From an uncultured Verrucomicrobiae bacterium (lineage in GTDB: Bacteria > Verrucomicrobiota > Verrucomicrobiia > Chthoniobacterales > JAFAMB01): DNA of 64,000 nucleotides. Both the position numbers and the translations under genes were made by a program. The notes below the pieces were generated by a model. It saw only the letters and a program-made list of their open reading frames with translations, did not search any database and had not been told where the DNA came from. Shown in pieces: positions 7,196 through 46,970 of this stretch (its first letter is position 1; every line of letters starts with the position of its first letter). Where the stretch lies: assembly GCA_963813025.1 (NCBI GenBank), contig CAWEXO010000004.1:96001-160000 (forward strand), given 5' to 3'.

Positions 7196-8081
7196 AGAAA
7201 TCGGCCGCCAGAGGGAAAGCGCTCGCCGGATCGACTGCCTGGTATCCTTGAGAACGAAACCAGGTGAACTGACGACGAGCGTACTGCCGTGTTTGCGCGC
7301 AAATATTTTCGTGGCAGGCGTCAAACGAAAGTTTTCCGCAGAGATATTCCCCGATGAATCGAAAACCGATCATCCGAGCCGCGCCGGTGCGCAAGCCTGA
7401 GTGGTCGGCCGCCTCCTCGACGGCTCCCTGGGCTAACATTTGGCTTACCCGCTCCTTGATGCGTTCATCCAGCGCCCAACGGGGCCGGTCAAGGAATACG
7501 GCTTTCCACCGGTTGCCGGAGCTGGATCGCCGGAAACTGGAGAAGCGCTTTCCGGTCAAAAGACACACCTCGAGCGCTCGGACGATCCGGCGCGGATTAC
7601 TTCGGTCGATATTGGCAAGAGAGTCCGGATCGAGGATTTGCAGCTCCGCGAGCAGGGAGGCCAGCGGCCGTCGGGCTAACCGTTCCCGCAACGCCGAGTC
7701 AGCCGGGGGGAGCACGGGCAGCGAGTGGGTGAGTGCCTGAAGATAAAAGCCGGCGCCTCCGACAACCAGCGGAACGATGCCTGCTCGATTTAGATCGCGA
7801 ATCTTGCTGCCAGCGAGTCGGGCAAAACGGAATGCGTCGAAATTGTCCGCGGCCTCGACAAAACTGAGCAGGTGGTGGGGAACAGTCGCGAGTTCCTCCA
7901 AAGCCGGCTTGGCCGCGAGCACATCAAAGCCCTTGTACATTTGGAAAACATCGGCGTTCAGAATCTCGGTGTGGCAGGCCTGTGCCAGGCTTACGGCAAA
8001 GGCTGATTTTCCGACGACCGTCGGTCCGGCAATAATCACGAATCGGAGATCGGCAAGTGGTATTTCGGAGACTGTTGTCAT
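7149..8081 (-). CDS. miaA: tRNA dimethylallyltransferase
   Basis: IAGPTVVGKS, VPHHLL, VGGAGFY, RRIVRALEV, TRQYARRQFTWF. Confidence 0.95.
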   Translation of the reverse strand: MTTVSEIPLADLRFVIIAGPTVVGKSAFAVSLAQACHTEILNADVFQMYKGFDVLAAKPALEELATVPHHLLSFVEAADNFDAFRFARLAGSKIRDLNRAGIVPLVVGGAGFYLQALTHSLPVLPPADSALRERLARRPLASLLAELQILDPDSLANIDRSNPRRIVRALEVCLLTGKRFSSFRRSSSGNRWKAVFLDRPRWALDERIKERVSQMLAQGAVEEAADHSGLRTGAARMIGFRFIGEYLCGKLSFDACHENICAQTRQYARRQFTWFRSQGYQAVDPASAFPLAADFFNELADARASAGQSP

Positions 8082-8084
8082 ACG

Positions 8085-8123
8085 AAAACAAAAACCCGCA
8101 CTCAACTTGTGAGCGCGGGTTTT
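8085..8123 (-). terminator. Intrinsic terminator after the RRM gene
   Basis: Minus strand AAAACCCGCGCTCA-CAAGT-TGAGTGCGGGTTTTTGTTTT: hairpin plus U-tract. Confidence 0.75.
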
Positions 8124-8144
8124 GAAACCTTCGGAACGAACTTG

Positions 8145-8651
8145 CTACGCCGCTCGTTCCATATCAGGCGTCTTCGCGCCGCTGACGACCAGCTTTCGGC
8201 CGAGAAACTCCTTATCATGGAGTTCCTCAACCGCACGACGCGCCTCGTCGATGGTTGTCATCTGGACGAAGGCAAAACCTTTCGAGCGTTGGGTATACTT
8301 ATGAGAGACGATCTCCGCATTCCGAACTTGACCGACGCCTTTAAATAGCTCGAACAGGTCGCTCTCGGTAGCGTCGAAGGAGAGATTGCCCACATAAAGC
8401 TTCGGCGAAGTTACCTCAATGAGTTCAGGCTTACGGCTGATCCTCTCTTTCGGCGCGGCTTTTGGAACCGGCTTTTCAGCCGATTTGACCGGCACAGATG
8501 GTTGCGAGCCCCGGAAAAAGACCAGGATTCGCTGCCAAAAAGTCGGCTTTGGCTTCGGGGAAGCAACGGGGCTGCTGGCTGCGTAGCTTGAACGTTTGCG
8601 GCGACCTCGGCGAGATCGTCGTCCTTGATAGTGCATAGATTGGGATTTCAT
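8145..8651 (-). CDS. RRM RNA-binding protein with Arg-rich N-terminal extension
   Basis: RNP2 LYVGNL and RNP1 KGFAFVQM. Confidence 0.9.
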   Translation of the reverse strand: MKSQSMHYQGRRSRRGRRKRSSYAASSPVASPKPKPTFWQRILVFFRGSQPSVPVKSAEKPVPKAAPKERISRKPELIEVTSPKLYVGNLSFDATESDLFELFKGVGQVRNAEIVSHKYTQRSKGFAFVQMTTIDEARRAVEELHDKEFLGRKLVVSGAKTPDMERAA

Positions 8652-8737
8652 TTCATAACTGGATTCTGAAGTTCATCAGGCGAAGGCATGCACTTTGCAT
8701 ACTGAGAAAGAACAGTTTGGGCGGAACTTAGCCCCTA

Positions 8738-8904
8738 AAACCCAAGGCCTTCACCGCAACATCCAGGAGCATCGGGCGGCTGTGGAAGGTGAGCACCCGG
8801 ACTTGGAACCATTCCGCCCCAGACAAGTCTGTCTGCGGAAGGTCTAGCCCGACTTTGTGCGCCAGCGCCCAAACAGATTCTAGGCCCACGACAACCCCAA
8901 GCCC
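8738..8904 (-). ncRNA. Candidate ~170-nt rod-shaped structured RNA (6S-like or RRM 5' leader)
   Basis: Hand-folded nested helices around 8812-8840; many G-U pairs that work only on the minus strand. Confidence 0.4.
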
Positions 8905-9053
8905 GGCATCTCCCGTGTTACAACATCTATATAATAGAAGGAACCTCGTCGGGCAACTGTTTTGCGCGTGCACTGGATTGGCAGGGGGAGCGCCAGTACT
9001 AGTGTCAGTTGGGACCCATCAGGTCCCTCCGGCATCTCTGAAGCGGAGAAAGG

Positions 9054-12000
9054 TCAAGCCACGCGGCCGCAACAGTTCTTGTATTTCTTTCCACTGCCGC
9101 ACGGACACGGATCGTTTCGGCCTACTTTGGGGGCTTCGCGTTTGGCCGAAGGAAGAACCAACTCCAGTTCACTTTCACCATTCCCGCCCTCTTCCGGGTT
9201 CGAAAATCCAAAATTTTCTTTTCGAGCGATGGGTCCGCCGGCCGGCATGCGCGGCACGCCCGGTAACTCCGGGGCTTGCGGAATGTTGAGCGGCAAAGAA
9301 GCCAGAAATTGCTCGAAAGCCATGAGGTTGGTCGTGCTGCGAAAAAGATTGTAGAGAACCTCGTTCTTGATGCTCGCCATGAGCTGGCTGAACATGTCGT
9401 AGGCTTCCGCCTTGTACTCGACCAGAGGATCTTTTTGTCCGTAACTGCGCAGGTAAATGCCTTCCCGCAGACCATCCATGGCGTAAAGATGCTCCTGCCA
9501 GAGCCGGTCGATCGCGTTCAGAAGAATGTAACGCTCCAGAGCCTGCTGACCGCGTCGGATTCCTCATGGCTGACCTTTTGCTGGTAGGACTGCTTTACGC
9601 GATCGACGAGGAACTGGGCATTTTCCTCGATCGTCCGCGTCTCCAGCTGAGAGCTCTGTCGAGTCAGACCGAGCGGGAAAGTTGTCGTTACCCAATGGAG
9701 CAGACCGTCGTAATCCGGTTCGCCATCGTCGCGTGTCCTCCAGGTACTCGCGGACGCTCTGGGGCAGAACTTCTTCCACGATCTCGAACACCAGCTTGCG
9801 CGGCTCGTTGGTCTCGAGTGTCTCGTTGCGGAGCGCGTAAACGACTTCGCGCTGTTTGTTCATCACGTCGTCGAAATCGAGCGTCCGTTTGCGGATCAGA
9901 TAGTTCCGCTGCTCGACGCGTTTTTGCGCGGTCTCGACGCTTCGGTTCAGCCACGGATGCTCCAGTTCCTCGCCTTCTTTGAGCCCGAAGCGCTCCATCA
10001 TCGTCGTCATCTTTTCGGACGCGCCGAAGTTGCGCATGAGATCATCTTCGAAGCTGACGTAAAAGCGCGATGAACCCGGATCGCCTTGGCGCGCGCAACG
10101 TCCGCGCAACTGCCGATCAATGCGCCGCGATTCGTGCCGCTCGGTGCCGAGGACGTGCAAGCCGCCGAGTTCCGGCACGCCATCGCCGAGTTTGATGTCG
10201 GTGCCGCGGCCGGCCATGTTGGTCGAAATGGTGACCGTGCCGGCGCTGGCCGGCGCGGGCGACGATCTCGGCTTCCTGCCGGTGATATTTTGCGTTGAGG
10301 ACGTTGTGCGCGATTTTTTCGCGCTTCAGCATCCGGGAGAGCAGTTCGGACGCCTCGACACTCGCGGTGCCGACCAGCACCGGCTGACCCTTGCGCGTAG
10401 CACCCTTTGATTTCGTCGACGACCGCGTTGTATTTTTCGCGGCGCGTTTTGTAGATGCGATCGTTGGCATCCGCCCGGATACAGGGCCGATTCGTCGGGA
10501 TAACGGCGACATCGAGCTTGTAGATGTCGTGGAACTCGTTCGCCTCGGTCTCGGCCGTGCCGGTCATGCCCGCCAGCTTATGATAAAGGCGAAAGTAATT
10601 TTGGATCGTGATCGTCGCGAGCGTCTGCGTTTCGCGATCGATCTGCACGCCTTCCTTCGCCTCGACCGCCTGGTGCAAACCGTCGCTCCAGCGCCGGCCC
10701 GGCATTTTCCGGCCCGGTATATTCGTCGACGATGATAACCTTGTTTTCCTCGACGACGTAATCGACGTCTTTCTCGAACAGGCAGTAGGCGCGAAGCAGT
10801 TGCGAGATGTTGTGGATGCGTTCGGCCTGGTTGTCGCAGTACTGCTGGCGCGCGCGCTTCTTTTCGTCTTTCTGCCTGACGGTTAAAGTTCGGGTCGAGA
10901 TCGATCTCCGTAAATTCGCTGATCAGATCGGGCAGCACGAAACGCGTTGGGATCGTCCGGATTCAAGAAGAGTCGCGGCCCTGCTCGGAGAGATCCGCTT
11001 CCTGATGTTTTTCATCGATGGTGAAAAACAGCTCTTCTTTGAGGGCGACCAGCTCTTCCTTGCGCGAGTCCTGGTAGAAAGAGAGCTCGGCCTTATCGAT
11101 AGCTTTGCGATTTTCCGGGTCCTCCATCATGCGCAGCAGACCTTTGTTGCGCGGCTGGCCGAGCTTGACTTTGAACATGAGCCGGCCTGCCTCCTCCAGG
11201 TTGCCTTTCTCGATGGCCTCTTTCGCTTCGGAGCGAGCCGGTTGCAGAGCATCGTCTGCTTGCGCACGAGCTGCTCGACCAGCGGTTTGAACTTGTCGTA
11301 TTGATGGGTCGAGACCGTCGCCGGACCGCTGATGATCAGCGGCGTGCGCGCTTCGTCGATCAGGATGGAATCGACTTCATCGACGATGGCATAGTAATAG
11401 CCGCGCTGGACCTGCTGCTCCTTGGTCGTGGCCATGCCGTTGTCGCGCAGGTAATCGAAGCCGAACTCGCTGTTCGTCCCGTAAGTGATGTCGCAGGCGT
11501 ATTGTTCGCGGCGGAGCTGAGGCGGCTGGTCGTGCTGAATACAGCCGACCGTCAGCCCGAGCAAGTTGAAAAGCTCGCCCATCCACTCCGCGTCGCGGCG
11601 CGCGAGATAATCGTTTACGGTCACGAGGTGCGCGCCGCGTCCGGCCAGCGCATTCAGATAGAGCGGGCAAGGTCGCGACGAGCGTCTTGCCTTCGCCGGT
11701 CGCCATCTCCGCGATGCGTCCGGAATGCAGAACGATGCCGCCGATCAGCTGCACATCGAAGTGCACCATGTTCCAGGTCATCGGCTGATCGCAGACATTG
11801 AAGTGCGTCCGCAAAGGCGGCGCGCCGCGTTCTTCACGCAGGCGAAAGCTTCCGGCAGAATTTCATCGAGGCGGCGCGCCAGCATTTCGGGATCTCAATC
11901 TGCGCCAGCTCGGCTTTCCAGGCAGCGGTTTTCTCGCGCAGCTGCTCTTCGCTCAAGGCTGCGTACTCCTGCTCCAGTCGATTAATCTTCTCGAGCAAAG

Positions 12001-12067
12001 GCCGCAACCGGCGAATCTCCCGCTGGTTCTTTGAACCAACGACCTTTTTTAAAATCCAGCTGACCAT
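9054..12067 (-). CDS. secA: Preprotein translocase ATPase SecA (many frameshifts)
   Basis: [50 protein letters not shown]-terminal [18 protein letters not shown]. Confidence 0.97.
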
Positions 12068-12078
12068 TCTTTTTTCTC

Positions 12079-12647
12079 CTACTTACTGCCGGGATGAGAG
12101 ACCGGGATCGCAGCTAAATCCGGTGGAAGCCGATCAGGTTCAAAAGTTTCGAAATGCAACTTCGCCAGAGCTCTCGAAACGACATCCAAAATCCGGTCGG
12201 TGGTCACCACTGCGATCTACCAGACAACCAACGGCGACGACTTGCGCGCCGCTTTTCCTCGACAATATCGATTGTTTCCCGGACTTTTCCACCTCTTGTC
12301 ACGACGTCTTCCGCGACCACGAAGCGCTCTCCCGGAGTTATCGAAAATCCCCGGCGAAGCACAAGTTTCCCGTCGAGCTTTTCCGCGAAAATATGTCGCT
12401 TCCCGAGAAAGCGCGCGGTCTCCTGGCCGACAACTATCCCTCCGAGCGCTGGCGAAATGACGGCGTCGCACTCCACATCGCGGATTTCGCCGCCAACTCA
12501 CCGCAAATGCGGGCGGCCAGATCGGTGATATTGCAAGACCAGCGCGCATTGAAAGTATTGGCGGCTGTGTAGCCCCGAACTCAGGACAAAGTGCCCTTCG
12601 AGCAGCGCGCCTGTCCTAATGAAAATGTCTAAAAGAGTTTCCGCCAC
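12079..12647 (-). CDS. pyrE: Orotate phosphoribosyltransferase, frameshifted
   Basis: [45 protein letters not shown]. Confidence 0.9.
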
Positions 12648-12660
12648 AATGCCTAAAGAT

Positions 12661-13035
12661 TCACCGCGACTGCTTCGATCTCAACCCGCGCACCCTTCGG
12701 CAGAGCGGCTTATCCCAATGGTGGAACGCGCCGGAGGGTGCGACCGGGAAGAAGGTCTCATAGACACTGTTCATTTCTCCGAATTCGCGCATATCGATCA
12801 GGAAGACCGTTGTTTTGACGACTTGCTCGAGACCGACCCCGGCGGCTTTGAGGGTCGCGGCGAGATTATGCAAAACCCGCCGGGTCTGCTCGGCTGTGCC
12901 GCCTTCGACCAGTTGGCCGGTTTGCGGATCCAAAGGAATTTGACCAGAGCAAAAGATCATTGTCCCGGCAGCGATCGCCTGGGAATAAGGACCGATCGCG
13001 GGAGGAGCGTCCCGAGTTGCAATAACCTGTTTCAT
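12661..13035 (-). CDS. ridA: RidA/YjgF family deaminase
   Basis: [28 protein letters not shown]-terminal frameshift. Confidence 0.9.
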
Positions 13036-13157
13036 GGAAAGCGTGCAAGGGTACTGGTCGGACGCCCAGTGTCAACCTGTGGCGCAAAGATGCTCAGCGG
13101 GGTTGGGCGATCATTTTTTCTAAATCGGCGACTTTGCGCTGCAGTTCTCTCACGATC

Positions 13158-14184
13158 TTATAAATGCCCGGCAAGCGCTTGAGATGGACTTCGCGCTCCA
13201 GAAAATCTCGCTTCGGTTGAGCAGGGGAACCGATTACCACTCCTCGCGCGGAACATGATTGGTGATACCTGCTTGGGCATGTACCACGGCGTCATCGCCG
13301 ACCATGAGATGGTCCGGGAGACCCGGCCTGGCCACCGAGGACTGCGCGATCGCCGACAACCGAGCTTCCCCCAGCCCGACCTGCGAGACAATCAGACAGT
13401 TTTCCCGATCGTGACGTTATGCCCGACCTGGACCAGATTATCGATTTTTGAGCCTCGGCCAATCCGAGTTTCTCCCAAAGTGCCGCGATCGATGCAGGTA
13501 CCACAGCCAATTTCCACGTCATCATCGATCACCACCTGCCGATCGAATTGATCCGCAGCAGTTCGGTATTGAAGTTCTTTAACCTCACCGGTTTGGCGAA
13601 CGGATTCGATGCTGCTTGGCTCCGGCGTGACAAAGGCAAATCCGTCTCCGCCGATAACCGCGTTTGGTTGAACGAATTACTCGTTTTCCTAATTGGCACC
13701 GGTCGCCGATACACACGCCGGCATGAAGCAGGCATTCTTCGCCGATCTCCACGTCCGCACCAATACTGACATTGCAAACCAAGCGCGAGCCCGATCCGAC
13801 TCTCGCTCGCGGGCCTATCCAGCAATGCGGTCCGACGCAGACGTGCTCACCGATTATCGCCGTCGAGTCGACTGCTGCCGAAGCATGGATTCCCTCCCCA
13901 ACAAAGACGGGGCGCTCAAAAATTTCCGTGAGTTTCGCCAAAACCAGTCGTGGACGATCGACCAGGATTTGGTTGGGTGTCGGGACACCATTCAACGTTT
14001 CCGGCACGACCGCGCTGATCACCCTGTTCGAAATCAGCAGCGGGATAACCGTTGGTGATAAGACGAGCGCAAGGTCACTGGAGCCGCCCGCCGCAGCTGG
14101 GTGAACCACTCGCTCGATCACCAGAGACGGGTCTCCCCGCAGCTTGCCGCCGACTAGTTCGGCAATTTCGCGGAGAGTTTTCAT
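13158..14184 (-). CDS. lpxD: UDP-3-O-acyl-glucosamine N-acyltransferase, frameshifted
   Basis: [13 protein letters not shown], hexapeptide repeats, IGGDGFAF and [12 protein letters not shown] in shifted frames. Confidence 0.9.
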
Positions 14185-14378
14185 CGTCGGGGGAAAACTA
14201 GAACCACGAATAGCGGTGAACGTCAACGGGAAGCGGCGGGAGCGGGTTGCGTAGCGCGGACGGCCTGAGTAGCGCGGCCGGCCTCGGATCTGGGACTTTG
14301 GCAACTCGCAACACGTGTATCAGGCGATGGGTCGCGCAAAAGTTAGAGATCGTCTGCAGTACTCATTGTCCTGTGTCG

Positions 14379-14501
14379 GCAGGGCGAAAATTTATCCGAG
14401 CCTTAGCGAGGACTCGTTTGAGCGGGACGCGGGAGCAGGCCACGCGCTCCAGACGGCTCAAACAAGTTCTCGCCTGGCGCTCGAATAAATTTTCGCCCTA
14501 C
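14379..14501. repeat. GTAG-type palindromic repeat element (REP/REPIN-like), copy 1
   Basis: Ends GCAGGGCGAAAATTTAT...ATAAATTTTCGCCCTAC; homologous to 55111-55292. Confidence 0.8.
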
Positions 14502-14546
14502 CAACACGGCGCCGTGCGGCTTACGAAGCATTTGGGTTGCATCGCC

Positions 14547-14748
14547 GTAGCACGGACGGCTTCGTCCGTACCTCTTGCCCACGACCTGAGTACATCGAGC
14601 ATTTATCGGGAAGTTGGATTTACCGCTTTCTTCGTTGCAGAGACCGATTCTGAAAAGCTCGGCTCTGAGTGAGCTTCGGAACAGATCCCAGGCGGACCAC
14701 CTAACCCAGCGTGCAGTCAAGAGGTACGGACGAGGCCGTCCGCGTTAC
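14547..14748. repeat. Inverted pair of GTAG-REP-like hairpins
   Basis: GTAGCACGGACGGCTTCGTCCGTACCTCTT ... AAGAGGTACGGACGAGGCCGTCCGCGTTAC. Confidence 0.7.
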
Positions 14749-15444
14749 TCACCCCGCTCCTTTCACGGTGACGAGCCAAGTATAGTGTTCGCCCGGACGC
14801 AAGCTGCGTGTGTCGGCCACGCTCGTGGCGGTTTCGGCTCGCAGGGCAGTCCGCCCGGGGCCGAGCGCGGTAATTTGCAGCCTGTATTCTTCGTTCCGCC
14901 GCCCAATAAGAGTTACCGCCGAGCGTTCAGCGCCCAGAGCGAAATGCCCGAGATCTACATCATCGAGCTGGAGATCGACGGTTTTGGACTCCGACTTTCC
15001 GACCGACTCGATCCAGAAGGTGAATGCTGCCACCTGTCCATTCTCAAGGCCTTGCTCGAGATGTCGCGCCAGCGATTCGACTGATGCTGGAACCTTTTCA
15101 TCTTTGAGCAAACGCTCGGTATCAGCCAGGACGGTGCCCGTAAGCTCTTTCCGAGCCTCCATTAATAGCCGGAAGGTGAGTAACGGATTTAACAGATTCT
15201 GTCGAATAAGGGCACGAGCGGCCAGGGTTGTCTCAGGGTCGATGTCATCGCTGCCCAGTTCGAGCACCCGGTCCGGGGGGTTCCGCACCATGGCCGAGAT
15301 AAAGTACTGGATCAGTCCCGCCAGTCCGGCCAGCGCGACGAGCAGGAGGGCAGATTTCAACAGGAACCCGAGCCCTTTGGCAGCGCGCGGGGTTCGCCGG
15401 TCCGCGCTTCCATGAAGTTCGCGCTTCTTGCGGTTCTGACCCAT
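14749..15444 (-). CDS. Hypothetical single-pass membrane protein
   Basis: 231-aa ORF with one N-terminal hydrophobic helix. Confidence 0.6.
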   Translation of the reverse strand: MGQNRKKRELHGSADRRTPRAAKGLGFLLKSALLLVALAGLAGLIQYFISAMVRNPPDRVLELGSDDIDPETTLAARALIRQNLLNPLLTFRLLMEARKELTGTVLADTERLLKDEKVPASVESLARHLEQGLENGQVAAFTFWIESVGKSESKTVDLQLDDVDLGHFALGAERSAVTLIGRRNEEYRLQITALGPGRTALRAETATSVADTRSLRPGEHYTWLVTVKGAG

Positions 15445-15518
15445 AGAACTGGCGAGGGCGGGCCTTGGACCAAGGAATTACAAAGGCGGGCCGGCGCGCG
15501 AGCTCGCTGCCGCCGGTC

Positions 15519-15936
15519 CTACCGGGGGTGGTCCGCGAGACGGACGATACTATCGAATTCGGCCTTTGTAAGCGGCACGACCGACAATCGCGATTGTTTC
15601 AGCAGTGGAATGTTCTGCAGCTCCGGCCGGCCTTTGATCGTCGCGAGAGTCACTGCCGGGGTAAAGGGAACGTTTCGGGATCAATTCGACCGCGACCCAG
15701 TCGCCCTCAGCTGAAGTCGGATCGCGAAACGCTTCTTTGCTGACCTCAGCGATTCCAACAACCGCCTTTCCATTGACGCTATGATAGTAGAGCACCTCGT
15801 CGCCTTGCTTCATCGCCCGGAGGTTGTTGCGCGCCTGAAAGTTGCGAACGCCCGTCCAGTCGATTTTTCCATCCGCGACAAACTGTTCCCAGGAATACGC
15901 CGTAGGTTCTTGCTTCACTAGCCAGAAGTGGGACAT
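15519..15936 (-). CDS. EVE domain protein, frameshifted
   Basis: FWLVKQEPTAYSW...WTGVRNFQARNNLRAMKQGDEVLYYHS. Confidence 0.9.
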
Positions 15937-16042
15937 CGATCTGGACATAGCATGCGGCAGCCTCGGTGTCAGCGTTGAAAGAAAATTCTCGTTGGAAACA
16001 AGACTTCCGCAGATAGTAGCTTTCAAGGACTCTAAACAGACA

Positions 16043-26006: not shown

Positions 26007-26051
<45 letters not shown>

Positions 26052-26186: not shown

Positions 26187-27315
26187 ATGCCAAGAACCGC
26201 TAGCCTAAAGCCAAAGCACCGAGACGGGCGCGTAAGCGCTTGGTGCGTGTCCGTTCCTCCCGCGATGTCGCCGACTGGCAAACGCCAAGAACTGTTCTTT
26301 GCCACGAAGGGCGAAGCGCAGGCCGAATGCGAAAAGCTGAAAGCACGGAAGGACAACTTTGGTATCAGCCTTCGCGCCATGAGCCCTGCAAGGATAGCGG
26401 AAGCATCCGAAGCATTCAGGCTACTTGAGCCGTTCGACATGAGCCTTCTGGATTGCGTGCGATCGCACGTCGCTACTCTCGTCCAACGAAAGAACAGCGT
26501 AAGTTTTGGAGAAGCTTTCCGGCGCTGGGCCGATCTCAAGAAAAGCAAGTCTAAGAAATACATCTCTGAGATACGACAGGTCCGGGCCAAGTTTAACGCC
26601 ATTCAGGATGTTCCCATCTGCGACATCAAAGCCGATCACTTGGAGCCGATCCTTTCTAATCTTCCGCCAGCGTCGCGCAACGCCCACATGCGTCGGCTGC
26701 GGACTATGTTTAATCACGCAATGAAAAAGGATTGGATCCCGTTCGGTTCAAGCCCGATTGCGAGAATGGATTTCGCAGAAAGCAAAAAGCATGAGGTTGA
26801 GACGTTTCGCCAGAACATGTTGAAAAGATGCTGAGATACGCGCTGGAGCATGATTCCGACCTTTGCCATTGCTTGTCCTTGGGTTTTTCTGCGGCATCCG
26901 TCCCGAGGGCGAGCTATCCAAACTGGCATGGAGCGACCTAAGGTTCGACAAAGACAAGGCGCAGGTCGTGATACGTCCAGAAGTGTCTAAGACCCACCGT
27001 CGCCGGTTTATCGACGTTTCCGCGAACGCCATCGAATGGTTGAGACTAGCCGGGATCAAAAAGGATGGTCTGGTTCTTCCGCTCGCCGACATTACATTGA
27101 GACGCAAGCGGCGGGACATGTGCAAGAACCTAGGGATACGCTGGATCCAGCAGGGTATGCGCCACAGCTTTTGCAGCTACTGGCTAGCCATCCATGAGGA
27201 CGCCGACAAGCTTGTCCTCCAGTCAGGGCATACCGATGCCCAAACCATGTGGGAACATTATCACGCTGGTGTCACCAGAGAGTCCGCACAGCGCTTTTGG
27301 TCGATCGTTCCTTAA
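26187..27315 (+). CDS. Tyrosine integrase (frameshift near 26810-26860)
   Basis: GIRPEGEL (R), SKT (K), MRHSFCSY, SGH, EHY (Y). Confidence 0.92.
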
Positions 27316-31214: not shown

Positions 31215-31300
31215 TTGAAGGCGATCGCAAGAAGCAAACTCTATAAATTATCACCTTGTCGGTATCTGCTTTCGCCACGCTAACGCAAAGGGAGGTTCAG

Positions 31301-32656
31301 ATGAAGAAGCTTCTTACTGTACTATCTGTCTTCCTCAGTCTGGTTGGCGTACTACGGGCGTCAACCTCTGATCAAAATGCGTGGGAGACTGCCTACGACC
31401 AGTGGCTCTCTGTCCTGGCACCCTCCACTATGACAGCGGCGGCTCCTAGTATCCGGCAGTGGATGGCGCTTAACCCGATAGACAAATACGCTGCCGCTGA
31501 CGATTGGTGGTGGGCGTTACTTCAGAAATGGGGAGGGACATGGCCATTGTGTTACTACGTTGGAGGGATGAACAACCGTTTCCCCTACGATGATCTCTGG
31601 CGCGGGCCGTACCCTGGCAACAAGGTCGTTAATGTGGCTCCAGGGACTAACACACTTGACGCCGCTGTAGCTGCTCACCCCAATGGACATACTACCTACA
31701 TGCTATCCACTGGTGATTACTACACCGACGGAGGGCCAGGTGACGGAACCGGCACTGTTTATGGAGATTACAGTCAGGTCGTAGGTAAGGGCGCTGGAGT
31801 TACAAGGGTGCATGTGACCGGGGATAACATTGCTTTTAACGGCGGCACCTTTTGGAATTCAACTTTAGCGGAACACATATTGGTTGAAGGGGTGACTATA
31901 GATTGTGGCGTTACAGGAGCTGCTTTCGCCAGCCAGGGTAGCTACCAGGTTTTGCAGGCGTGCGTGATTAATAATTATGCATCTACTGCTGCCGGGTACG
32001 AGGATTTTCTCGTGTATATGGGATCGGGGGTTAACGCTGTCGGCCAGGTGTCCAAGCATAACCATGTTGTCAATTGTGTCTTTACTCCTGCGGCATCTGG
32101 CAACGTTGGTGGAATTACTGTAGTTCAATTCGGTGCTCCGACCACTGCTGGAACAATGATCTACTACATTGACCACAGTATCGACCGCTGCACCTTCAGC
32201 GAACCCACGGACCCGGCAACTGCGTACTATCAGTGCGTCGGACAGGCGAATTGGGCTGGTTACAATTACTTCATCGCGCCTCACTTTTCTACCGGCGCGT
32301 TCTGGTTCAGTGAGCCGGGTTCCTGGGGCAGTTTAGACTTCCAGAATGATCGGGGATCGACCTACACTCTGGCAGGCAATCATGTGACTCTTTCGCCGAA
32401 TTTCCAGCTTGCGGCGGATGCCAACCATCCCAACGGCGCATTGGGGACGTTCAGACTTCTCTGCAATATAGTTAGCAATGGAGAAACATTCCTTTTCGCG
32501 GCAGTTGATGCATACCCACCTAATCCCGCGATTGTTGGTATCAATTGCTCCTATAATTTCGTTTCCAGCAGCAACCCCACGATTGACTTGGCTGGTTCTT
32601 CTTCGGGAACGATAGGCTCAATAACTAACGTCGGGAACGTGCCCAACCAACCTTGA
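31301..32656 (+). CDS. Secreted pectin-lyase-like beta-helix protein
   Basis: Signal peptide MKKLLTVLSVFLSLVGVLRA; VVGKGAGVTRV, VEGVTIDC, VVNCVF, IDRCTF strand patterns. Confidence 0.65.
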   Translation: MKKLLTVLSVFLSLVGVLRASTSDQNAWETAYDQWLSVLAPSTMTAAAPSIRQWMALNPIDKYAAADDWWWALLQKWGGTWPLCYYVGGMNNRFPYDDLWRGPYPGNKVVNVAPGTNTLDAAVAAHPNGHTTYMLSTGDYYTDGGPGDGTGTVYGDYSQVVGKGAGVTRVHVTGDNIAFNGGTFWNSTLAEHILVEGVTIDCGVTGAAFASQGSYQVLQACVINNYASTAAGYEDFLVYMGSGVNAVGQVSKHNHVVNCVFTPAASGNVGGITVVQFGAPTTAGTMIYYIDHSIDRCTFSEPTDPATAYYQCVGQANWAGYNYFIAPHFSTGAFWFSEPGSWGSLDFQNDRGSTYTLAGNHVTLSPNFQLAADANHPNGALGTFRLLCNIVSNGETFLFAAVDAYPPNPAIVGINCSYNFVSSSNPTIDLAGSSSGTIGSITNVGNVPNQP

Positions 32657-33806: not shown

Positions 33807-34012
33807 ATACCGAATCTGAAATCCTGAAACTAAAGCAATCGGTCCAGGAATTGCAGCGCAAGGTGCGGGCACTAGAAAAAGACCGAACACCAAAGACTTA
33901 CGCCGAGTCTACCTATCAGCTTCCTTTGCAACCTACCAGCATCGATCCTGTGCTTGAGGGGATAGTCAACGAACGTAAAAGGTGGCGCAGAGGTTATGTC
34001 AGCGGAACCTAA
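33803..34012 (+). CDS. Small coiled-coil hypothetical protein
   Basis: ATGA overlap with upstream ORF. Confidence 0.5.
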   Translation: MNTESEILKLKQSVQELQRKVRALEKDRTPKTYAESTYQLPLQPTSIDPVLEGIVNERKRWRRGYVSGT

Positions 34013-34169
34013 CCATAAAGACGTTCCTGCAGACTGCTTTGGTCCGGTTCCACCGAAAGAAGTCGATCCACTTGTCTACGGACCCCTGGAAAAGGACGAA
34101 GTTTTGCGGCAGCTTAGCATGTACTCCCGCAAGACGCGTAGGCGCTCGTGGGTTAGGGATTTTTGCTAG
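33996..34169 (+). CDS. 57-aa hypothetical protein (absent from ORF track)
   Basis: GAGG RBS; MSAEPNHKDVPADCFGPVPP...; fills the operon gap. Confidence 0.45.
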   Translation: MSAEPNHKDVPADCFGPVPPKEVDPLVYGPLEKDEVLRQLSMYSRKTRRRSWVRDFC

Positions 34170-34171
34170 CA

Positions 34172-34387
34172 ATGAACACCGACGATTTGCCAGAAGAATA
34201 TTATCTAACGGCGCTGGAAATAACCTTGGCTCGTGAAAACTACCTTGCTTGGATAAACGGTCTGCGTCAACGGCAGCTACAACACCAACTCCACGACGAA
34301 ATCAGGGCTGTAGCTCGCAGAATAGAGAATCACGAAATTCTTCAACTGGAAGCAGCAGTGGGCGAGGCTGTGTTGGCGGATATTTGA
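34172..34387 (+). CDS. Hypothetical protein
   Basis: Starts 2 nt after the upstream stop. Confidence 0.5.
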   Translation: MNTDDLPEEYYLTALEITLARENYLAWINGLRQRQLQHQLHDEIRAVARRIENHEILQLEAAVGEAVLADI

Positions 34388-35166
34388 TCCGGACTGAGGT
34401 CATGGCAGAAGAGGCTGTGTTTGCGAGGCGCCTGGCTTTTCGGCGTGCGTATTCCAAAGCATTACATTCCTTGCAAGCAGGCTGCAGTCCGTCCCAGCGC
34501 TGGGCGTCCCTACTGAAGTATGTTAATTCCTTATGGGTTTTGCACCTGCAGCATCTTTTTTCCTCTGCTCCGGAAATTTCATTGATTCTGTGCGGAATAC
34601 GGCACCACTTGTTGTCTAGGGAATATCGATTTCCCATCATTCTGGCGAGGAACAGAGTGCGGCCTTGGGCGCCAGAATGACGGGGAAGCAACATTTCCTA
34701 GGCCACAAGCATACCGAGAGGGCTCGCGCCGCAATAAGCGCCGGAATGACGGGAAAACAAAACGGACTGGGAAACCAAAGTGCCCTAGGATACAAGCACA
34801 CCGAAGAGCAGTGCGCAGCCCGGAGCGGTGAACTCCTACCCAGCGGCTGCCTCACCCCCGTCGGTACCATTAACCAATGGACCATTCTTCTTTCGCCCTA
34901 TTGTTGCAATCCAGTAGATCTCGCAGAAAAATGCGTAGTCTTCGTCATCAGTTTCTACGATTTTTTCCCGAATCGGCTCAAGACCTTCCTCCAGCAGCTT
35001 TCTTAGCTTGCGGTCGAGGCGTGAATTGTGTCCCGACCGATTGGCCTTAATCGTCTTCCAGTGTTGCCATATGCGGCCATCGCTGCCTTTGCCCACGTAA
35101 ATCGGATCGCCGTTTTTCGGACTGGATATGAGGTATACGTAGTACTTGCCACCAGCCTGGACACAT
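34302..35166 (-). pseudogene. GIY-YIG nuclease + NUMOD3-like repeats + C4 zinc finger, with an internal inversion
   Basis: KYYVYLISSPKNGDPIYVGKGSDGR...LVNGTDGGE and KRCCRCKTHK...CKEC on minus; HKHTERARAAIS/YKHTEEQ repeats on plus in 34646-34827. Confidence 0.85.
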
Positions 35167-35432
35167 TGGAATACCTACCTAGGACGCAACAGTTACTGGC
35201 GGCGCGCAGCAGGTTCCCGGTTCCGAGTAACGTTTCCCGCTGGGGTATGTATATCTTATTATGGCATTGTTAGTTACGAGAGAAATTTTGGGGCGAAAAT
35301 TGGGGATCGATCCGCGTAGAGCGGTCAAGAACTATTCGCCAGTGCACGAGCTGATCCTTGGGGACACTGAGAGAATCCCTTTGTATCTTGTTCCCACCAA
35401 AGATACGAAGAAGGCAACCGGAGCCCGCTAAT

Positions 35433-35810
35433 ATGCACTGCGAAGATAAATTCGTCTCAAACGGGTACGCCTATACACTTGTGTTTTCTGAACACACACC
35501 TATCCAAGTTGGATCTGTGGCGGTATATAGACTAAAAAACCAGTACAGCCCTTCCATTGCGGAAGAATTTGAAGTCATTATTTGTTGTGCTGGCCGAAGT
35601 TACCCATTGGCACATAACCACGCAATTTGGGCATTTAATGCAGATGAGAAACAGGTTGCTTTGGACTTCGCCAATCGTGTAATCGCCAATCCGCATCAGC
35701 AAAGGGCGAATGCGGCAGACTTCTTTTATTCCAGCATCAAGAAGAAGACTGCGCTGCTTCCGGAACTTGGCACAGCTGCATGGTCCAGCGTTCCGGCGGG
35801 GGAATATTAA
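35433..35810 (+). CDS. Hypothetical protein
   Basis: ORF MHCEDKFVSNGYAYTL... Confidence 0.5.
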   Translation: MHCEDKFVSNGYAYTLVFSEHTPIQVGSVAVYRLKNQYSPSIAEEFEVIICCAGRSYPLAHNHAIWAFNADEKQVALDFANRVIANPHQQRANAADFFYSSIKKKTALLPELGTAAWSSVPAGEY

Positions 35811-35814
35811 CCTA

Positions 35815-36093
35815 ATGGCTTCTACCCCACAAAGTGAACGGCTGGCAAGGATCTATGCCGAATGCACCGCGAAAGGGCTTCCGACAGCCGTAAAACAGGC
35901 AATACTTTCGGATTTGGCTGCCAATCCCGGAAAAGCATATTCAGTTACAAAGTGTGGTAACACATATAAGATCAGGCCAGAATACCCGAGTGGCCGTAAG
36001 CTTTCCAAGGCTGCAATAGCTAAGCTGTATGGGCGCAGTACTAAATCAGGATTTGCATGGGGAACAACCCACATAGAAATTGGAAAGAAATAA
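35815..36093 (+). CDS. Basic hypothetical protein
   Basis: ORF MASTPQSERLARIYAEC..., starts 4 nt after upstream stop. Confidence 0.5.
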   Translation: MASTPQSERLARIYAECTAKGLPTAVKQAILSDLAANPGKAYSVTKCGNTYKIRPEYPSGRKLSKAAIAKLYGRSTKSGFAWGTTHIEIGKK

Positions 36094-38078
36094 TCTTTTG
36101 TAGACTGCGCCCAGTGCCAGCGGGCAAATGCTGGCAAATGTTGGTGTTCACAGCTCCCCTTTCGGCTCTATTCCCCGAGAGGGGGGTATCCTAAATAAGA
36201 ATGAAACACTGTAATCTTTCAGCAACCAAGTGTTGCCAGCTAGTTTGCGCTTTGATTTTTTCTCGCGACTAGCTCCCCTTTTCTTTAGAAACTAAACATG
36301 ATGACCAGGATGCACAGACTAAGCGCAGCACAATGTAATGCTATTCTTTTTCGGATGGTCCCGGAAGTGCCAGTGTTGACAGCTTGCTAAGATTAGCTAT
36401 TCGGACACTACACGATCCGCAGACAGATACTCGCGCACTTAGGCCGGCGGATATTCGACGCAGAACAATGCAGTTGTCAGGCCGACTCAAACGAATCGTT
36501 AGGAACGGAATTTAAGTTATGGCAAATTCGAAAGTTCTCGATACTCAGATCCTCCTAACTGGGCACATCGATCCGTCCGTTGTCGCAGCCATGGCAAGGG
36601 GTGCTGAGTACATTCGGAAATTATCCCAGGAATGGAAAAAAAATGAACAAGCTATTTACGGTGATGCGGCTGCGGTCCAACAGTTAAATGCCAGAATTCG
36701 CATCACGCAATCCATGTCGCAACAGCTGGGCGCAAGCATGCGGCGGATCGGCGAGATCGCCAGCGGCGTCGCTGTCGGTGATCTACTCGCGTCTGGGTTC
36801 GAGAGAGCGCTGGGTGTTGCGGAAAGGATTGGAGAAAAGCTAATAGAATTTGGACGCCAAGCCAGTGAGCTGGCGGCCAAGCGTGAACTCATGAGTAAGG
36901 GCTTGGGAAACATTCTTGGCGATCAAGGATTAGCTAATGCCATTATGGAACGGCAACAAGCCACGGCCATTCTGTCGCCATTTCAGGCCACTGACCTTCA
37001 ACAGACCGTCAAGCGTTACGTTGCGGCCGGGGCTGATGCCAACATGGCCGAATGGCTGACCAAGCGCTCTGGCGACATCGTTGCGGGCGTTGGTGGTGGG
37101 GCTGAAGCAATGGAGAGGGCAGCACTGGCCTTTGGGAAAATTATAGCTGGGGGCCGTTTAACTGGCCAAGAGGGAAAGGAATTGAAGGACCTCGGAATTC
37201 CGTACGAGAAGACTCTTGCCCAAATCATGGGTGCGAAGAATCCAGAGGAATTGGCGAAAATGCAGCGCCAAGGGAAAATCAGCGCTGATGTGGTTATGCA
37301 GATGGTCAAGCAAATGACCGATGTCGGAGGAATATTCCACGACGGGATGCTAAATTTCTCTAAAACGATGGTCGGTCTGGAAACCAGCTTCTTGGACGTC
37401 TGGCATAAATTCCAGGCCAATTTTAATGAAGTAATCAATGACTGGGCCGCTGTCGCTGCTGATTTTGCCGTCAACAACGACATGTGGAATCAGGCTACTT
37501 CCTGGATGAACCATTTCAGACAAATGTCGAAGTCTGTGCTTTCGATCCTAACAACCCTGCCGACTTCAGAAAGTTTTGGCAAGTTCAAGCCATTTATTGA
37601 CGCATTTCAGGGGTCAATCCGTAGCTTTACCAAGTACGTCAGTTCGTTTTTTACGACCGTCGAAATTCCTAACCAAGGCAACGTGCTTGCGTTAAATGAA
37701 ACCGGAGTCGGTGCGGTCCGGGAGATTGTCAAAAACATAACGGACGTTTTGTCCGAGATGTCTAAGTTGGTCACTTCGCCAATGGTTCAGGATTTAGCCA
37801 AGGCTTCTTGGCAAGGGGTGAAGGACTTTTTTGTCGAAGCATTCACTACACTAAAAGCAATCACAGAACTTTATGCAGACTTTAAATCCCATGACATAAA
37901 AAAGTTCTGGGAAGATTGGGATAAATATTCCGGAAAGGTGCACGGACCTGAAGCGCCAGAGAATGAAGCGCGCCACCGTTTGAACAAGCGCAGAAAATCA
38001 GCGACGCGCAGGACAAGCTTAATGCGTTGGTAAATGCTAGCGCACCGGATGCGGACATCCAGAAGGCAAAACAGAACC

Positions 38079-39193
38079 TAGTGCATTGTAGCATTGACTT
38101 CTGATATGATGATCTGATAGCAAAAAGGAGTGTTAAAACGATTGGTTCTTTCTCCGCCAGAACGTCGACGACTTAGGCAGCGGGTCCGATCCCGTAGCGG
38201 GCGAGCAGAGGAGGTGCAGCGAGCCAAGATTGTCCTCTTGATTGCTAGCGGCAGATCGCAATGGGCGGTAAGTCGGCAACTGGGATGCAGCATCAACACC
38301 GTGCGACTTTGGCTGAAGCGCTTTATGGAGGAACGTTTGGCAGGTCTTTTCAGTCGTCATCGTGGCAAGGTAGCCAGCCAACAGAGCGCCAAGCTCGAAG
38401 CTCAGATTTTGGCCGCGGCCCGACATAAACCCACGGATGGCTCGACGCACTGGAGTACTCGGAAGTTGGCGGCCGAACTTGGCACCAACCATACCCGAGT
38501 CGCCCGTGTTCTGGCCAAAGCCGGACTGCAGCCGCACCGCCTGCGCCGCTACATGGCCAGCGACGACCCGGATTTTGAAACCAAGGCTGCTGATATCATT
38601 GGTTTGTATCTGAAGCCTCCGGTCAATGCCGCAGTTTTCTGCGTCGACGAAAAGAGCGCCATCCAAGCGCTGGACCGGCTCGATCCAGTGTTGCCGCTCT
38701 CGCCCGGAAGAGCCGAGCGGCACGGTTTTGAGTACTACCGTCACGGCACGCTTTCGCTCTACGCAGCGCTCAACACCAAAACCGGCCAGGTGCTGGGCCA
38801 AACTGTGCCTCGTCACACCAGTGCCGAGTTTGTTGCTTTTCTTGAACAGATCGTCGCCAGCTTTCCCGAGGGCCAGCAGATCCACATTATCGCAGATAAT
38901 CTCTCGGCACATCGCACCTCCAGAGTCTGGCAGTTTATCGATCGTCATCGCCACGTGCGGATCCATTTTACACCGACCTATTCTTCATGGCTTAACCAAG
39001 TCGAGATCTGGTTTTCCAAGATCCAACGCGACGTCATCGCCCGCGGAATCTTCCGTTCGGTCAAAGACTTGGCTAAAAAACTCATGACCTATATCCGACG
39101 CTATAACATGAAGGCCAAACCCTTTAAGTGGACCTACCGATCAGCAGAGCGTCGTATCAATCCCGTATCAGGTTTAAACGCTACGCCGCACTA
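38079..39193 (+). mobile_element. IS630-family insertion sequence
   Basis: Imperfect TIRs TAGTGCATTGTAGCATT / AACGCTACGCCGCACTA; inserted at CTAG with duplicated TA. Confidence 0.92.
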
Positions 39194-39194
39194 G
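38130..39194 (+). CDS. IS630 transposase (intact)
   Basis: HWSTRKLA HTH; DDE in VDEK, ADNLSAH, TPTYSSWLNQVE. Confidence 0.95.
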   Translation: MLKRLVLSPPERRRLRQRVRSRSGRAEEVQRAKIVLLIASGRSQWAVSRQLGCSINTVRLWLKRFMEERLAGLFSRHRGKVASQQSAKLEAQILAAARHKPTDGSTHWSTRKLAAELGTNHTRVARVLAKAGLQPHRLRRYMASDDPDFETKAADIIGLYLKPPVNAAVFCVDEKSAIQALDRLDPVLPLSPGRAERHGFEYYRHGTLSLYAALNTKTGQVLGQTVPRHTSAEFVAFLEQIVASFPEGQQIHIIADNLSAHRTSRVWQFIDRHRHVRIHFTPTYSSWLNQVEIWFSKIQRDVIARGIFRSVKDLAKKLMTYIRRYNMKAKPFKWTYRSAERRINPVSGLNATPH

Positions 39195-39779
39195 TCGATG
39201 CGGAACAACGGCAAAAGGAAATGGCTGATCAGCTAACCGACAGTATGGGCAAGCTGCGGGACGCCCTGCCTCAAGGTAACGGATATGTTCCCGGCCAAGG
39301 CTTGCAAGCGCATGGCAGTACAAGTGACTTCACAGTATACGGTCCGAAGATTGATCCGAAAGGGTCTGCGTTTTACGACAAGGATTCATTTAATGGAATC
39401 GGACATATTCAAGGAAAGCGATACAGTCTGCAGACCGGAGATTCGGCGATGAAATATGACTACGCTACCAGCCACTATCATATCAAGCCCGGGGAACGTT
39501 ACATCAGTGACAAGGACCATAAATGGCATACCTGGAAGGACACGACCGGCAGCAGGAACCCTGAGAATGAAGACATTTATAAGGGGGCGCAAATTAACGT
39601 GACAAACAATTTCGCTGTCCATGCCCTCGTCATCATGGGGTGGATTATGTTTTGAGAGCATGCTGAGAAAATAGCATCCACCGTGAAGAGAGTGTTCTCT
39701 GATCACATGATGACCAGTGCAGTGGTCTAAAGTGCGGAGATACGGCACTGCGTTTTTATTGTCTAACCCGCCGGCTTTA

Positions 39780-41202
39780 GAGATATTGTCAAAAGTTGTG
39801 TATCGGGGATGGGCGCATCCTTGTTGAAATTACTTTTTTGTCGTTAGGCAGCCTGTTGGGTTTGTTCTTCGCCATCGACGAATCGGACGCCCGTGACTAC
39901 TTTGGCGATCAGTTCGGGGCCGTTGAGCCGGCGCCAGTGTTTTTGGGCTTCCAGGCCGAGTTTAAAGACCATGGTCAGTGTCGCGATCCGTGAGCCGGAA
40001 CCCTTGGTTCGATGGGTGCGCAGCCGGACGGTAGCGAAGGTAGATTCGATGGGATTGGTGGTCCGTAAATGCGGCCAATGTTGGGCCGGAAAGTCATAGA
40101 AACTGAACAGGACTTCTTGATCTTTCTGCCAGGCACTCGCAGGCTTTGGAAATTTAGTCTGGTAACTGGAAATGAACTGATCGTAAGCTGCCAGAGCCGC
40201 TTTGCGGGTAGGTGCCAGGTACATTTCATGGATCAGTTCCTTGGCCTTGCCCTGAACACTCTTAGGCATTTTATCCAGGATATTGGCCGTTTTATGCACC
40301 CAGCACCGCTGCTGGGCGACTTGGCCATATTCTTCCTGCAGGGCGATCCAGAAGCCAAGCGAACCGTCGCCGATAGCCAGCTTCGGTGCGGTGGAAAGCC
40401 CCAGGCGTTTGAGCTGCCCAAGCAGTTCACGCCAGGATTGGGTGCTTTCGCGGTAGCCATCGACGACCGCTAAGAGTTCCTTGGTGCCATCCTCGGTAGC
40501 TCCAATCAGGACCAGCACACAGGTTCGTTCCTCATCGAGCCGGACATTGAAGTAGACGCCGTCGGCCCACCAGTAGACGTAACGCTTCTGGCTTAAGTCG
40601 CGCTGACTCCATGCCTTGTAGTCGGCTTCCCAACCGGCCTTAAGCCTTACGATATTGGTGGCCGATAGACCCGACTGGCTTTTTCGCCCAAAATCGCTGC
40701 CAAAGCTTCAGTGAAATCTCCGGTCGAGATGCCCTTTCAGATAGAGCGCCGGAATCAGTGCATCGACACTGGGTGTCCGACGCATAAACTTGGGCAGAAT
40801 CGCACTGGAAAAGCGACCCCTGTCACGATGCCGTACCCGCGGCTGACGAACCTTGATCGGACCAATTCCACTGACTATCTCCCGCTCTGGCAGATGCCCG
40901 TTGCGTACCACCAACCGCTGCCCATTCTCATCCCGTCGATCCTTGTGGAATTGGATGTAGTCGATCACCTCATTCTCGATCGCCGCCTGTAACAACTTGC
41001 GGGCTCCTTCCTGCAGCAATTGTTCCAAGGAACGGCTTCTCTTCATCTTCAGCTCGCTTATCGAGCGAGATCACTTTATTCTCTGGCACTGGTGCATCCT
41101 TTCTTCTGGCGCCCTCGGGTGAGGCCGCCGTCGTTTCTTTTTTGCTTACTGAAAGGATGCGCCTTTCCTTATCTCCTCATCCACAACATTCGGTTATACC
41201 TC
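39780..41202 (-). mobile_element. IS256-family element copy 1 (transposase frameshifted)
   Basis: 8-bp TSD CGGCTTTA at 39772-39779 and 41203-41210; GDGSLGFW, QRCWVHK, RTTNPIES. Confidence 0.93.
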
Positions 41203-41585
41203 CGGCTTTACCTTGCATCGGCAGACCCCGTTGTAACAGAGGGTCGATCAGCATGACCAACAGCGACGCATTTTTGCTGCAAAGAATAATCCCGACGGTG
41301 CGTAATTGAGGAAATTTGGTTCAAGCTTCGTTCACTTGCATAATAGCACCCGCAAGAATTGGCTAATTGCCCCACGGCGTTTCCTGTTGCGCTGGACGCG
41401 CTTTGTTCTCCGGAAGGTACCAACTACCACGAAACGGTCCTGAAAGCGTTAAATCCCGCCATTCGTGCAGAATGCGGCGCTCATATTTCATTAATGGTTC
41501 GCACCATTTCATTCAATGGGTGTGAATGAATTAATTAGATTAGCCTGGACCATTTCAGGCTCTGGCTGTTCCCGCTGGTAATTGA

Positions 41586-42418
41586 CTAGAGCCAGGCAGA
41601 AAGTACCCAAGTCCGCTTGCTGTGGGACCATATCCCCTTTGGCTGCTCAGGGGATATAACTGGCCCAAGGAACGTTTGGACTTCAGAGATGACTTCACGG
41701 AACGCTTTCGGAGCGTGGGGCAAGTCGGCTCTCTTTATAAAGGCGCTCCAGTCATTTTGATGTCGTTCTGCGAAGTCTTCAGAGAAAGCCGGAATTTCGT
41801 CCGGCACTGTTGTGCTAGCCACCAAATATCGAAGAAGTCCTTCATTCGGCTGTTTATCTCGCCCAAGTTGACAGCGGCCTGAAGTTTTTCGGCGATTACG
41901 CTTTCCCGGCTGTAGCACTTTATGCGAGGTGCCGGAAAATCCTCAAGCAAAGTGAGAAGCTCTTCAACCCGCGCTTTCGGATAAACGACATCACCGAACC
42001 CCGCATCCAACACCATTGGGAGCTGGGTAGTACCTAGCAAGCCGCGAAAACGAACCCTGAATCCAGGATATTCTGAATTTTCCGTGATGCGCTCCATACT
42101 CATTGAGGATGTCTCAAAAGTGACGCCATCTGGTTGTACTTCTAAAGCTGCAATCTCTTCAATCTGTTGAATCACATCTTCAGGTGTCCCATCGGCACCC
42201 AGAAAGTCGATATCTCCTGTAGGTCGAGCAATATCGGATTTCCAGACTCGAAGCAATAACGCGCCTTTCAGGATGAAGCTATCGACCCGCGCGGATTTAG
42301 ACAGCCGATAGAGAAAACGCTCCATGACATAATGCTGGGCAGTCTCGTTAAAGGCCCTCCCGCGTTTTTTGCTTAGATTAAGAAGCCTGTCGTGAACCGA
42401 TTTGCTTAGATTCTTCAA
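41586..42418 (-). pseudogene. AbiEii type IV TA nucleotidyltransferase toxin (frameshift with apparent internal deletion near 41810)
   Basis: ERFLYRLS, FILKGALL, RPTGDIDF, AEKLQA, NSRMKDFFDI. Confidence 0.85.
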
Positions 42419-43026
42419 GAAAGAGCCTTCACGTAAGGGAGCATAACGCCCTCAACTCGGCATATTTTCGCGCAGATCATTAGCTCTTGGGCATTGAACT
42501 TCTTCCGCGCCCTGTAGAGTTTTAGCGCTTCGATAGCCACGTCCTCACCGACCTGATTGCGAAGCTTAAAGCAGTCCGCAATGGTTTTTTCAGAACTGTA
42601 AATCCGGACCTTAACGCGATCGATCCTGTGCTCTTCAATTCCGTAATCAAAGCTGACGCCTGAAAAGTGATGCACGTCCACCGGAGGATATTCAATCCGA
42701 GGCGGCTCCCCTGATTTGGGTATCGCAATAGAGACGGCGTGCGGAATCTGGGTCGTGATATCGTGGAACGAAAGCGCAGATATCAGGCAGACAACAGACC
42801 TCGGCGCCCTGGCCGCGACGATTACAAGGTCAGGGTTTGCAAGTGGTTTTCCTCGTTTGAGCCGGAAAATACCTCGGGATAGCTTTTCCAGTGTCCCCGC
42901 GTTCTGAAGGCGATAAAGGGCATTGGCCCCCACGCCTTCATGAGCTGCGTCGCTGGTGCGCACGAGCCCCCCGTGGCTCTTTGCGATCGAAATAGCCTTT
43001 TCTGGCATCGTCATTTTGCCTTTCAT
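42415..43026 (-). CDS. AbiEi type IV TA antitoxin
   Basis: LEKLSRGIFRL, CLISALSFHDIT, EKTIADCFK; overlaps toxin start. Confidence 0.9.
   Translation of the reverse strand: MKGKMTMPEKAISIAKSHGGLVRTSDAAHEGVGANALYRLQNAGTLEKLSRGIFRLKRGKPLANPDLVIVAARAPRSVVCLISALSFHDITTQIPHAVSIAIPKSGEPPRIEYPPVDVHHFSGVSFDYGIEEHRIDRVKVRIYSSEKTIADCFKLRNQVGEDVAIEALKLYRARKKFNAQELMICAKICRVEGVMLPYVKALS

Positions 43027-46896: not shown

Positions 46897-46970
<74 letters not shown>

Follow-up and report, generated by a model that had tools for sequence, protein, structure and literature searches.

Gin and Cin are serine invertase systems of the Hin kind. Hin acts on 26-bp hix sites at both ends of its segment and makes a 2-bp staggered cut (PMC4817059). 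In intragenic invertons, as described with PhaVa, the inversion of a segment wholly within a coding region recodes the protein or cuts it short, and such segments are found via flanking inverted repeats together with reads in both orientations (PMC10028968). Pure microinversions of primate genomes are 17–33 bp long with repeats of at least 3 nt, and are described as exact single events on very short flanking inverted homology (PMC8755829). I-TevI and I-BmoI have an N-terminal GIY-YIG domain followed by NUMOD3 repeats and are encoded by mobile phage genes (PMC3664794).

We analysed a 64,000-nucleotide stretch of a contig from an uncultured Verrucomicrobiae bacterium, referred to here as the window. 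It contains a gene of some 288 codons that is likely a free-standing homing-type endonuclease gene; it encodes a GIY-YIG domain, then three NUMOD3-like repeats and lastly a C4 zinc finger, and a piece inside it is inverted. The order of its first two parts and its apparent origin as a mobile phage gene recall I-TevI and I-BmoI; it differs from them in its LEM-3-like phage group (relatives at most 52% identical among the best 150), in its C-terminal C4 finger and in being interrupted. As in intragenic invertons, the inverted segment lies wholly within the coding region, whereas here only a CG stands at the ends, the stop codon is outside the segment and the assembly gives one orientation. A 2-bp crossover core and a reciprocal exchange without loss of bases are shared with Hin/hix, but its two sites bear no relation to each other, and the element that carries the gene has no enzyme of this sort. 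Like the pure microinversions, it is exact, has very short flanking inverted homology and appears to be a single event; unlike them, it measures 180 bp, has 2 bp of homology and occurs in a bacterium.

The GIY-YIG nuclease domain (34839–35153, minus strand) was assigned to the LEM-3-like/phage homing type from Pfam, its relatives and its conserved columns. The Pfam matches of this N-terminal domain, PF22945 (LEM-3-like GIY-YIG; E 0.001) and PF01541 (E 0.025), were both below cut-off, and in a library of representatives 5,029 relatives were found at E up to 0.001, the best 150 at 32–52% identity. When 145 of 151 relatives were aligned (the 6 excluded were proteins with at least 400 residues), 35 columns proved conserved at a level of 60% or more, and the domain fitted 33 of these; every column conserved at 94% or more was kept, and the conserved Tyr, Arg, His, Glu and Asn columns of a GIY-YIG catalytic domain were present. 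This degree of conservation suggests that the inactivation described below is recent. The C-terminal part (34302–34645, minus strand) was delimited by translation, breakpoint scoring and finger comparisons and consists of the rest of repeat 3, the C4 zinc finger and a basic tail. The finger looks like the one in small phage 'endonuclease VII family' proteins (score 0.95, to be read as a lead, the other hits being weak). Of the 151 GIY-YIG relatives, 1 had a C4 finger of such spacing, though a different one; among longer proteins the C4 part had no match. The mix of a GIY-YIG domain with a C4 finger may be uncommon. Unusual domain mixes are ordinary for modular enzymes of the homing-endonuclease type.

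Six-frame translation of 34250–35300 confirmed the opposite-strand layout reported in the first-pass annotation: over 34647–34826 the plus strand is open for 60 codons of repeats, and the parts on either side, the GIY-YIG-like domain and the C4 finger, are encoded by the minus strand. These 60 codons match NUMOD3 (PF07460) in two stretches with 23.9 bits, against a cut-off of 20.4. With both junction dinucleotides included, the inverted segment spans 34646–34827; its length is 178–182 bp, according to how the CGs are counted, and nominally 180 bp. The left junction, a self-complementary CG at 34646–34647, and the right one, a CG at 34826–34827, were placed by translation and by breakpoint scoring, in which all pairs in 45 x 45 positions were scored by identity among the three repeat units. 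The top score of 114 belonged to a single equivalence class (34646/34827 = 34647/34826 = 34648/34825), and the runner-up reached 110. The best class is the CG/CG junction with zero bases gained or lost, so the earlier claim that CG occupies both junctions and that turning the segment restores the frame over 60 codons held under this scoring. When the segment is turned back, the three NUMOD3-like repeats stand in register between the GIY-YIG domain and the C4 finger. It is clear that the inversion is present in the assembled sequence and exact at both ends; its register is firm and the exact breakpoint is fixed within a few bases. That it exists in living DNA we infer from the assembly, and we likewise infer its single occurrence, the joining route, its recency and the loss of function.

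No inverted repeats were found to flank the segment beyond the CG when arms and sites were compared. The four arms around the two CGs have 2–5 of 13 bases in common, and the two pre-inversion sites, taken with 40 bases on each side, are alike at 17 of 80 bases inverted and 18 of 80 direct. The first-pass annotation had pointed to a quasi-palindrome at the restored upstream site. This is indeed present, and the site is self-symmetric at 26 of 80 positions, but the other site shows nothing of the kind (14 of 80), and a 4-base arm match like it occurs at 102 of the 5,603 CG dinucleotides in the window (1.8%). The 2-bp core had also been taken as a sign of a serine recombinase. Serine recombinases do cut in this manner; however, at least 2 bp of inverted microhomology arose in 16.1% of 180,000 simulated inversions of the region, and GIY-YIG nucleases leave 2-nt overhangs as well, so the CG core points only weakly to a serine recombinase. 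We also noticed that, through the inversion, direct repeats of the gene became inverted ones, reaching 40 bp with 80% complementarity (34608–34647 with 34670–34709, 34739–34756 and 34768–34796), and that these could seed further rearrangement. Reversal of the segment through the 40-bp repeats was considered and rejected, since they pair one flank with the interior of the segment and are a product of the inversion rather than flanking it.

The premature TAG noted earlier is present at 34836–34838 (minus strand), 9 bases from the right junction, at a place where relatives run on into the DNA-binding repeats: of the 108 relatives (among 151) with the end-of-domain motif, 107 continue for more than 30 residues beyond it. 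In the start region (35154–35166, minus strand), neither the ATG at 35166 nor the GTG at 35164 is in frame with the domain, the offset being one base in both cases and possibly a read error. Between the upstream stop and the first GIY-YIG motif no standard in-frame start was found, and a sigma-70 promoter scan of 34000–36000 gave 0 sites. The inversion, the TAG and the out-of-frame start leave the assembly without a single open reading frame for the gene, while the inverted piece and the GIY-YIG domain each read through without a break.

Both the TAG and an extra base near 35157 had been suspected of being read errors, and we estimated the error rate of the assembly from 655 of the 1,079 open reading frames of a genome of the same genus (G001), retained after filters for identity, coverage and third-position excess. 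The 655 genes contained 678 frame-breaking indels (204 of the genes had at least one), or about 0.9 per coding kilobase, and their 249,834 codons included 40 substitution stops. The 20 host genes of the window compared with G001, 6,860 codons in all, had no substitution stop but 35 frame-breaking indels; insertions were somewhat commoner than deletions in the window. For a gene of roughly 288 codons, error would account for 0.8 indels and about 0.05 substitution stops. The suspicion was thus upheld for the extra base, which is doubtful, and neither the start frameshift nor the frameshifts in the integrase of the element are informative on decay, because frame-breaking indel errors are frequent in this assembly. 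The TAG is probably real, since substitution stops are rare. An argument that three lesions make the gene a pseudogene was dropped once the indel error rate had been found. As the TAG adjoins the junction (the chance of such closeness is roughly 5%, by a rough estimate), it could be a local consensus error or be coupled to the inversion event. If it is real, the bare GIY-YIG domain would be the sole product in either orientation. Recoding of TAG was rejected: no tRNA with a CTA anticodon was among the 42 found, and a neighbouring gene of the element ends in TAG at about the end of its counterpart in a sister element. Around the TAG, 9 of 11 bases (34833–34843, minus strand) match the apparent target motif of a 12-copy IS110 family; the match is off the junction and probably due to chance.

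The phage-like element that carries the nuclease gene, in antisense direction, is 21 kb long and has integrated at tRNA-Pro. The left end of the element is marked by a 45-bp attachment repeat (26007–26051) identical to 46897–46941, the 3' end of tRNA-Pro; the site is empty in G001. The right end is formed by the tRNA-Pro(TGG) with the other copy of the repeat (46897–46970, minus strand). Additionally, the element carries a tyrosine integrase (26187–27315, plus strand) in two frames, possibly because of read errors, two HTH genes, an AAA_25 piece and a tape-measure-like gene (36519–39655, plus strand) split by an IS630-type element at 38078–39195. A sister element on contig C5 is 72–90% identical over five stretches. 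Where the window has the nuclease and two open reading frames of no known kind, the sister has a capsid gene (identity was given as 85–90% in that comparison); it contains no GIY-YIG gene, and at the matching place there is only what reads as a degenerate antisense zinc finger. Since its tape-measure gene is split by an insertion sequence and the capsid gene of the sister is missing, the element is decaying, quite apart from indel errors.

It seems likely that the locus results from a one-off inversion of the end-joining type in the free-standing homing-type endonuclease gene of this prophage-like element at tRNA-Pro. In a recent single event, a 180-bp internal piece would have been turned round, with no base lost or gained, and joined at the self-complementary CG. 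Most simply, two nearby breaks would have been mended the wrong way round by end joining; the joining of two nearby breaks is favoured because the inversion is exact and reciprocal and lies on a self-complementary dinucleotide, and the host genome has Ku and a LigD ligase domain (above cut-off). Two replication template switches would be a less likely route, and 2 bp of microhomology is short for template switching, judging from eukaryotic data on primate microinversions (PMC8755829). A point against end joining is that something must have caused two independent breaks at a spacing of 180 bp. The event would have involved neither a dedicated enzyme nor a binding site, and nothing would turn the piece back. 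The gene would be dead, the inversion and the TAG each parting the nuclease from its DNA-binding portion, and the loss of the nuclease would be neutral or useful to the host. Of the two interpretations offered in the first-pass annotation, a one-off inactivating rearrangement is the one that gained support, from the clean junctions, the lack of similarity between the sites, the TAG and the decay of the element. As far as its sequence goes, the locus behaves as an ordinary inactivating rearrangement: matching end sites, which define invertons and the substrates of serine invertases, are missing. Restriction and religation by a single enzyme leaving CG overhangs was rejected, as the pre-inversion 4-mers differ.

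An artefact of the assembly or library, in which the flipped piece and the adjoining TAG come from a chimeric read or a bad consensus while the real gene is intact, is unlikely. The high and patchy indel rate, with nearly a third of the compared genes affected, and the closeness of the TAG to a junction speak for it, as do the several frame-breaking indels in a neighbouring IS256-type copy (39780–41203). However, the errors observed in this assembly are single-base indels, whereas the artefact would need two exact reciprocal junctions without a repeat that could confuse a graph, and the GIY-YIG domain and the inverted piece are themselves unbroken. As a control, 2.0 Mb of the roughly 4.2 Mb of G001 was compared with this genome, and no intragenic micro-inversion was found in 1,196,760 aligned bases; the two candidates were both intergenic palindromic repeats. 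Of 100 planted 180-bp inversions, 52 landed outside the aligned DNA and 48 within it, and of these 48 the control detected 45; it does not estimate a natural rate, as real inversions in conserved genes would be purged. The absence of any such inversion in 1.2 Mb makes a systematic artefact unlikely, and a single chimera could still be at work. When the genome was scanned against itself, three candidate pairs were found in 608,937 repeated bases, and the two inspected were palindromic repeat elements. In addition, an intergenic palindromic repeat (L139:13175–13308 versus C14:310052–310185) has opposite orientations in this genome and in G001, between short terminal inverted repeats; the repeat at C14:310052–310185 sits between two convergent housekeeping genes, which we take to be guaA and coaD.

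We regard it as improbable that the gene inactivated itself, the encoded GIY-YIG nuclease having cut its own gene twice to leave 2-nt 3' CG overhangs, after which Ku and LigD, both found in the genome, religated the piece in reverse and the survivors were without nuclease. The enzyme itself would supply the two nearby breaks, and the 2-nt 3' overhangs left by GIY-YIG homing endonucleases (PMC3664794, PMC12663268) fit a 2-bp core without loss of bases. One pre-inversion site reads as an I-TevI-type CNNNG, but the other does not fit that motif whichever way it is read, and base composition would give a single fit among two sites about a quarter of the time. At the site that fits, CG presumably occupies the overhang position, judging from the nick positions. 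No common motif lies equally distant from the two cuts, which would fall at non-equivalent places of the repeats, 180 bp apart against repeat periods in the gene of 69 and 87, and the TAG would then have to postdate the event or belong to it.

A one-off mistake by a serine recombinase of the host (a resolvase or large serine integrase) at two cryptic CG-core sites is more doubtful still. Such enzymes make 2-bp staggered cuts (PMC4817059), one of the sites is quasi-palindromic, and an identical, inversion-compatible 2-bp core is found at both ends (CG/CG). A pair of like sites some 26 bp long, both made of two binding half-sites, was not seen: arm symmetry is confined to one of the two sites, and a shared core of this kind carries the chance level of about 16% given above. 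The search for a serine invertase proposed in the first-pass annotation was productive for the genome as a whole, with seven resolvase-domain matches (PF00239; three of them full length) and two pieces of large serine recombinases, but none of the seven was on contig C4, to which the window belongs, and both large-recombinase matches lie in short or broken frames. Two of the resolvase matches adjoin what look to us like Tn3-type transposase frames. Among the top 8 matches listed for each of the four junction 28-mers in the genome, none outside the gene exceeded 21 of 28 bases and none lay at a resolvase locus. A product of an IS110 bridge recombinase was also rejected: of 40 IS110 matches in the genome, the 35 in four multi-copy families have junctions of the CT or TAG type, not CG, as read by eye, with one family's left end poorly resolved and 5 singletons outside the reading.

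Hardly any weight can be given to the reversible ON/OFF switch for a toxic nuclease that had been suggested, even in a repeat-free version in which a recombinase would flip the segment at two dissimilar CG-core sites and so connect or disconnect the prophage nuclease and its DNA-binding repeats: turning the segment back does restore the frame exactly, but this is expected of any clean inversion in a once intact gene and is no sign of design; intragenic invertons exist (PMC10028968) and the catalytic domain is well conserved, but the segment is without flanking inverted repeats, its sites are unlike beyond the CG and the TAG outside it would block a full-length product in both states; and the genome is only about 80% complete, such that an invertase could be missing from the assembly, but no serine recombinase is in the element, all matches being on other contigs, and the IS110 families of the genome have the wrong junctions. 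The repeat-free version would need both the TAG and the start frameshift to be consensus errors; the frameshift may be one and the TAG could be. Self-inactivation by the nuclease is somewhat likelier than this version.

We also looked for homologues in which the orientation could be compared. Protein comparison with 60 relatives and DNA comparison with 100 gave no close homologue, and a junction probe gave 0 matches in viral contigs. Metagenome contigs and viral contigs each yielded a single distant homologue, with 33% identity; 16 phage records stayed under 40%, and one longer protein reached 35%. In the open-access literature we found no published inversion that inactivates a phage homing endonuclease gene. 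Under the preferred reading, a one-off inversion by end joining, the meaning is most likely small: one more route to the death of a selfish nuclease gene in a resident prophage-like element, by an exact 180-bp inversion on 2 bp of homology, an uncommon lesion with none alike in the 1.2 Mb compared. Were both orientations to turn up in reads, the segment would count as an inverton of a sort that searches beginning with inverted repeats would miss. Should the nuclease itself have done the cutting, the locus would be a natural case of self-inactivation of a homing-type enzyme through host end joining, with its cut sites revealed for free.

Several minor observations were made on the surroundings of the gene. 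In this genome, calls of 'frameshifted' or 'degenerate' genes should be treated with care; secA (about 9058–12067, within 6500–16000) is split over many frames, with 15 frame-breaking indels. Inserted in the element at 31256–32656 (plus strand) is an open reading frame of 466 aa that seems to begin with a signal peptide; Pfam gave no match for it, and the C5 sister does not have it. At 41735–43026 (minus strand) stands a two-gene pair which, from its translations, looks like an AbiEi/AbiEii type IV toxin–antitoxin module. Two further IS630-type copies stand in direct tandem at C4:166731–168960. The C5 sister is about 13 kb long and lies on the minus strand at about 5300–18800 of C5:312000–331999. 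Its genes include an integrase, a T5orf172 protein, the zinc finger, an AAA_25 primase-like protein, an HNH protein, the major capsid protein, a tape measure and an endonuclease VII-like open reading frame; no terminase or portal was noticed among the open reading frames scanned, and the sister reads as a satellite-like or reduced prophage.
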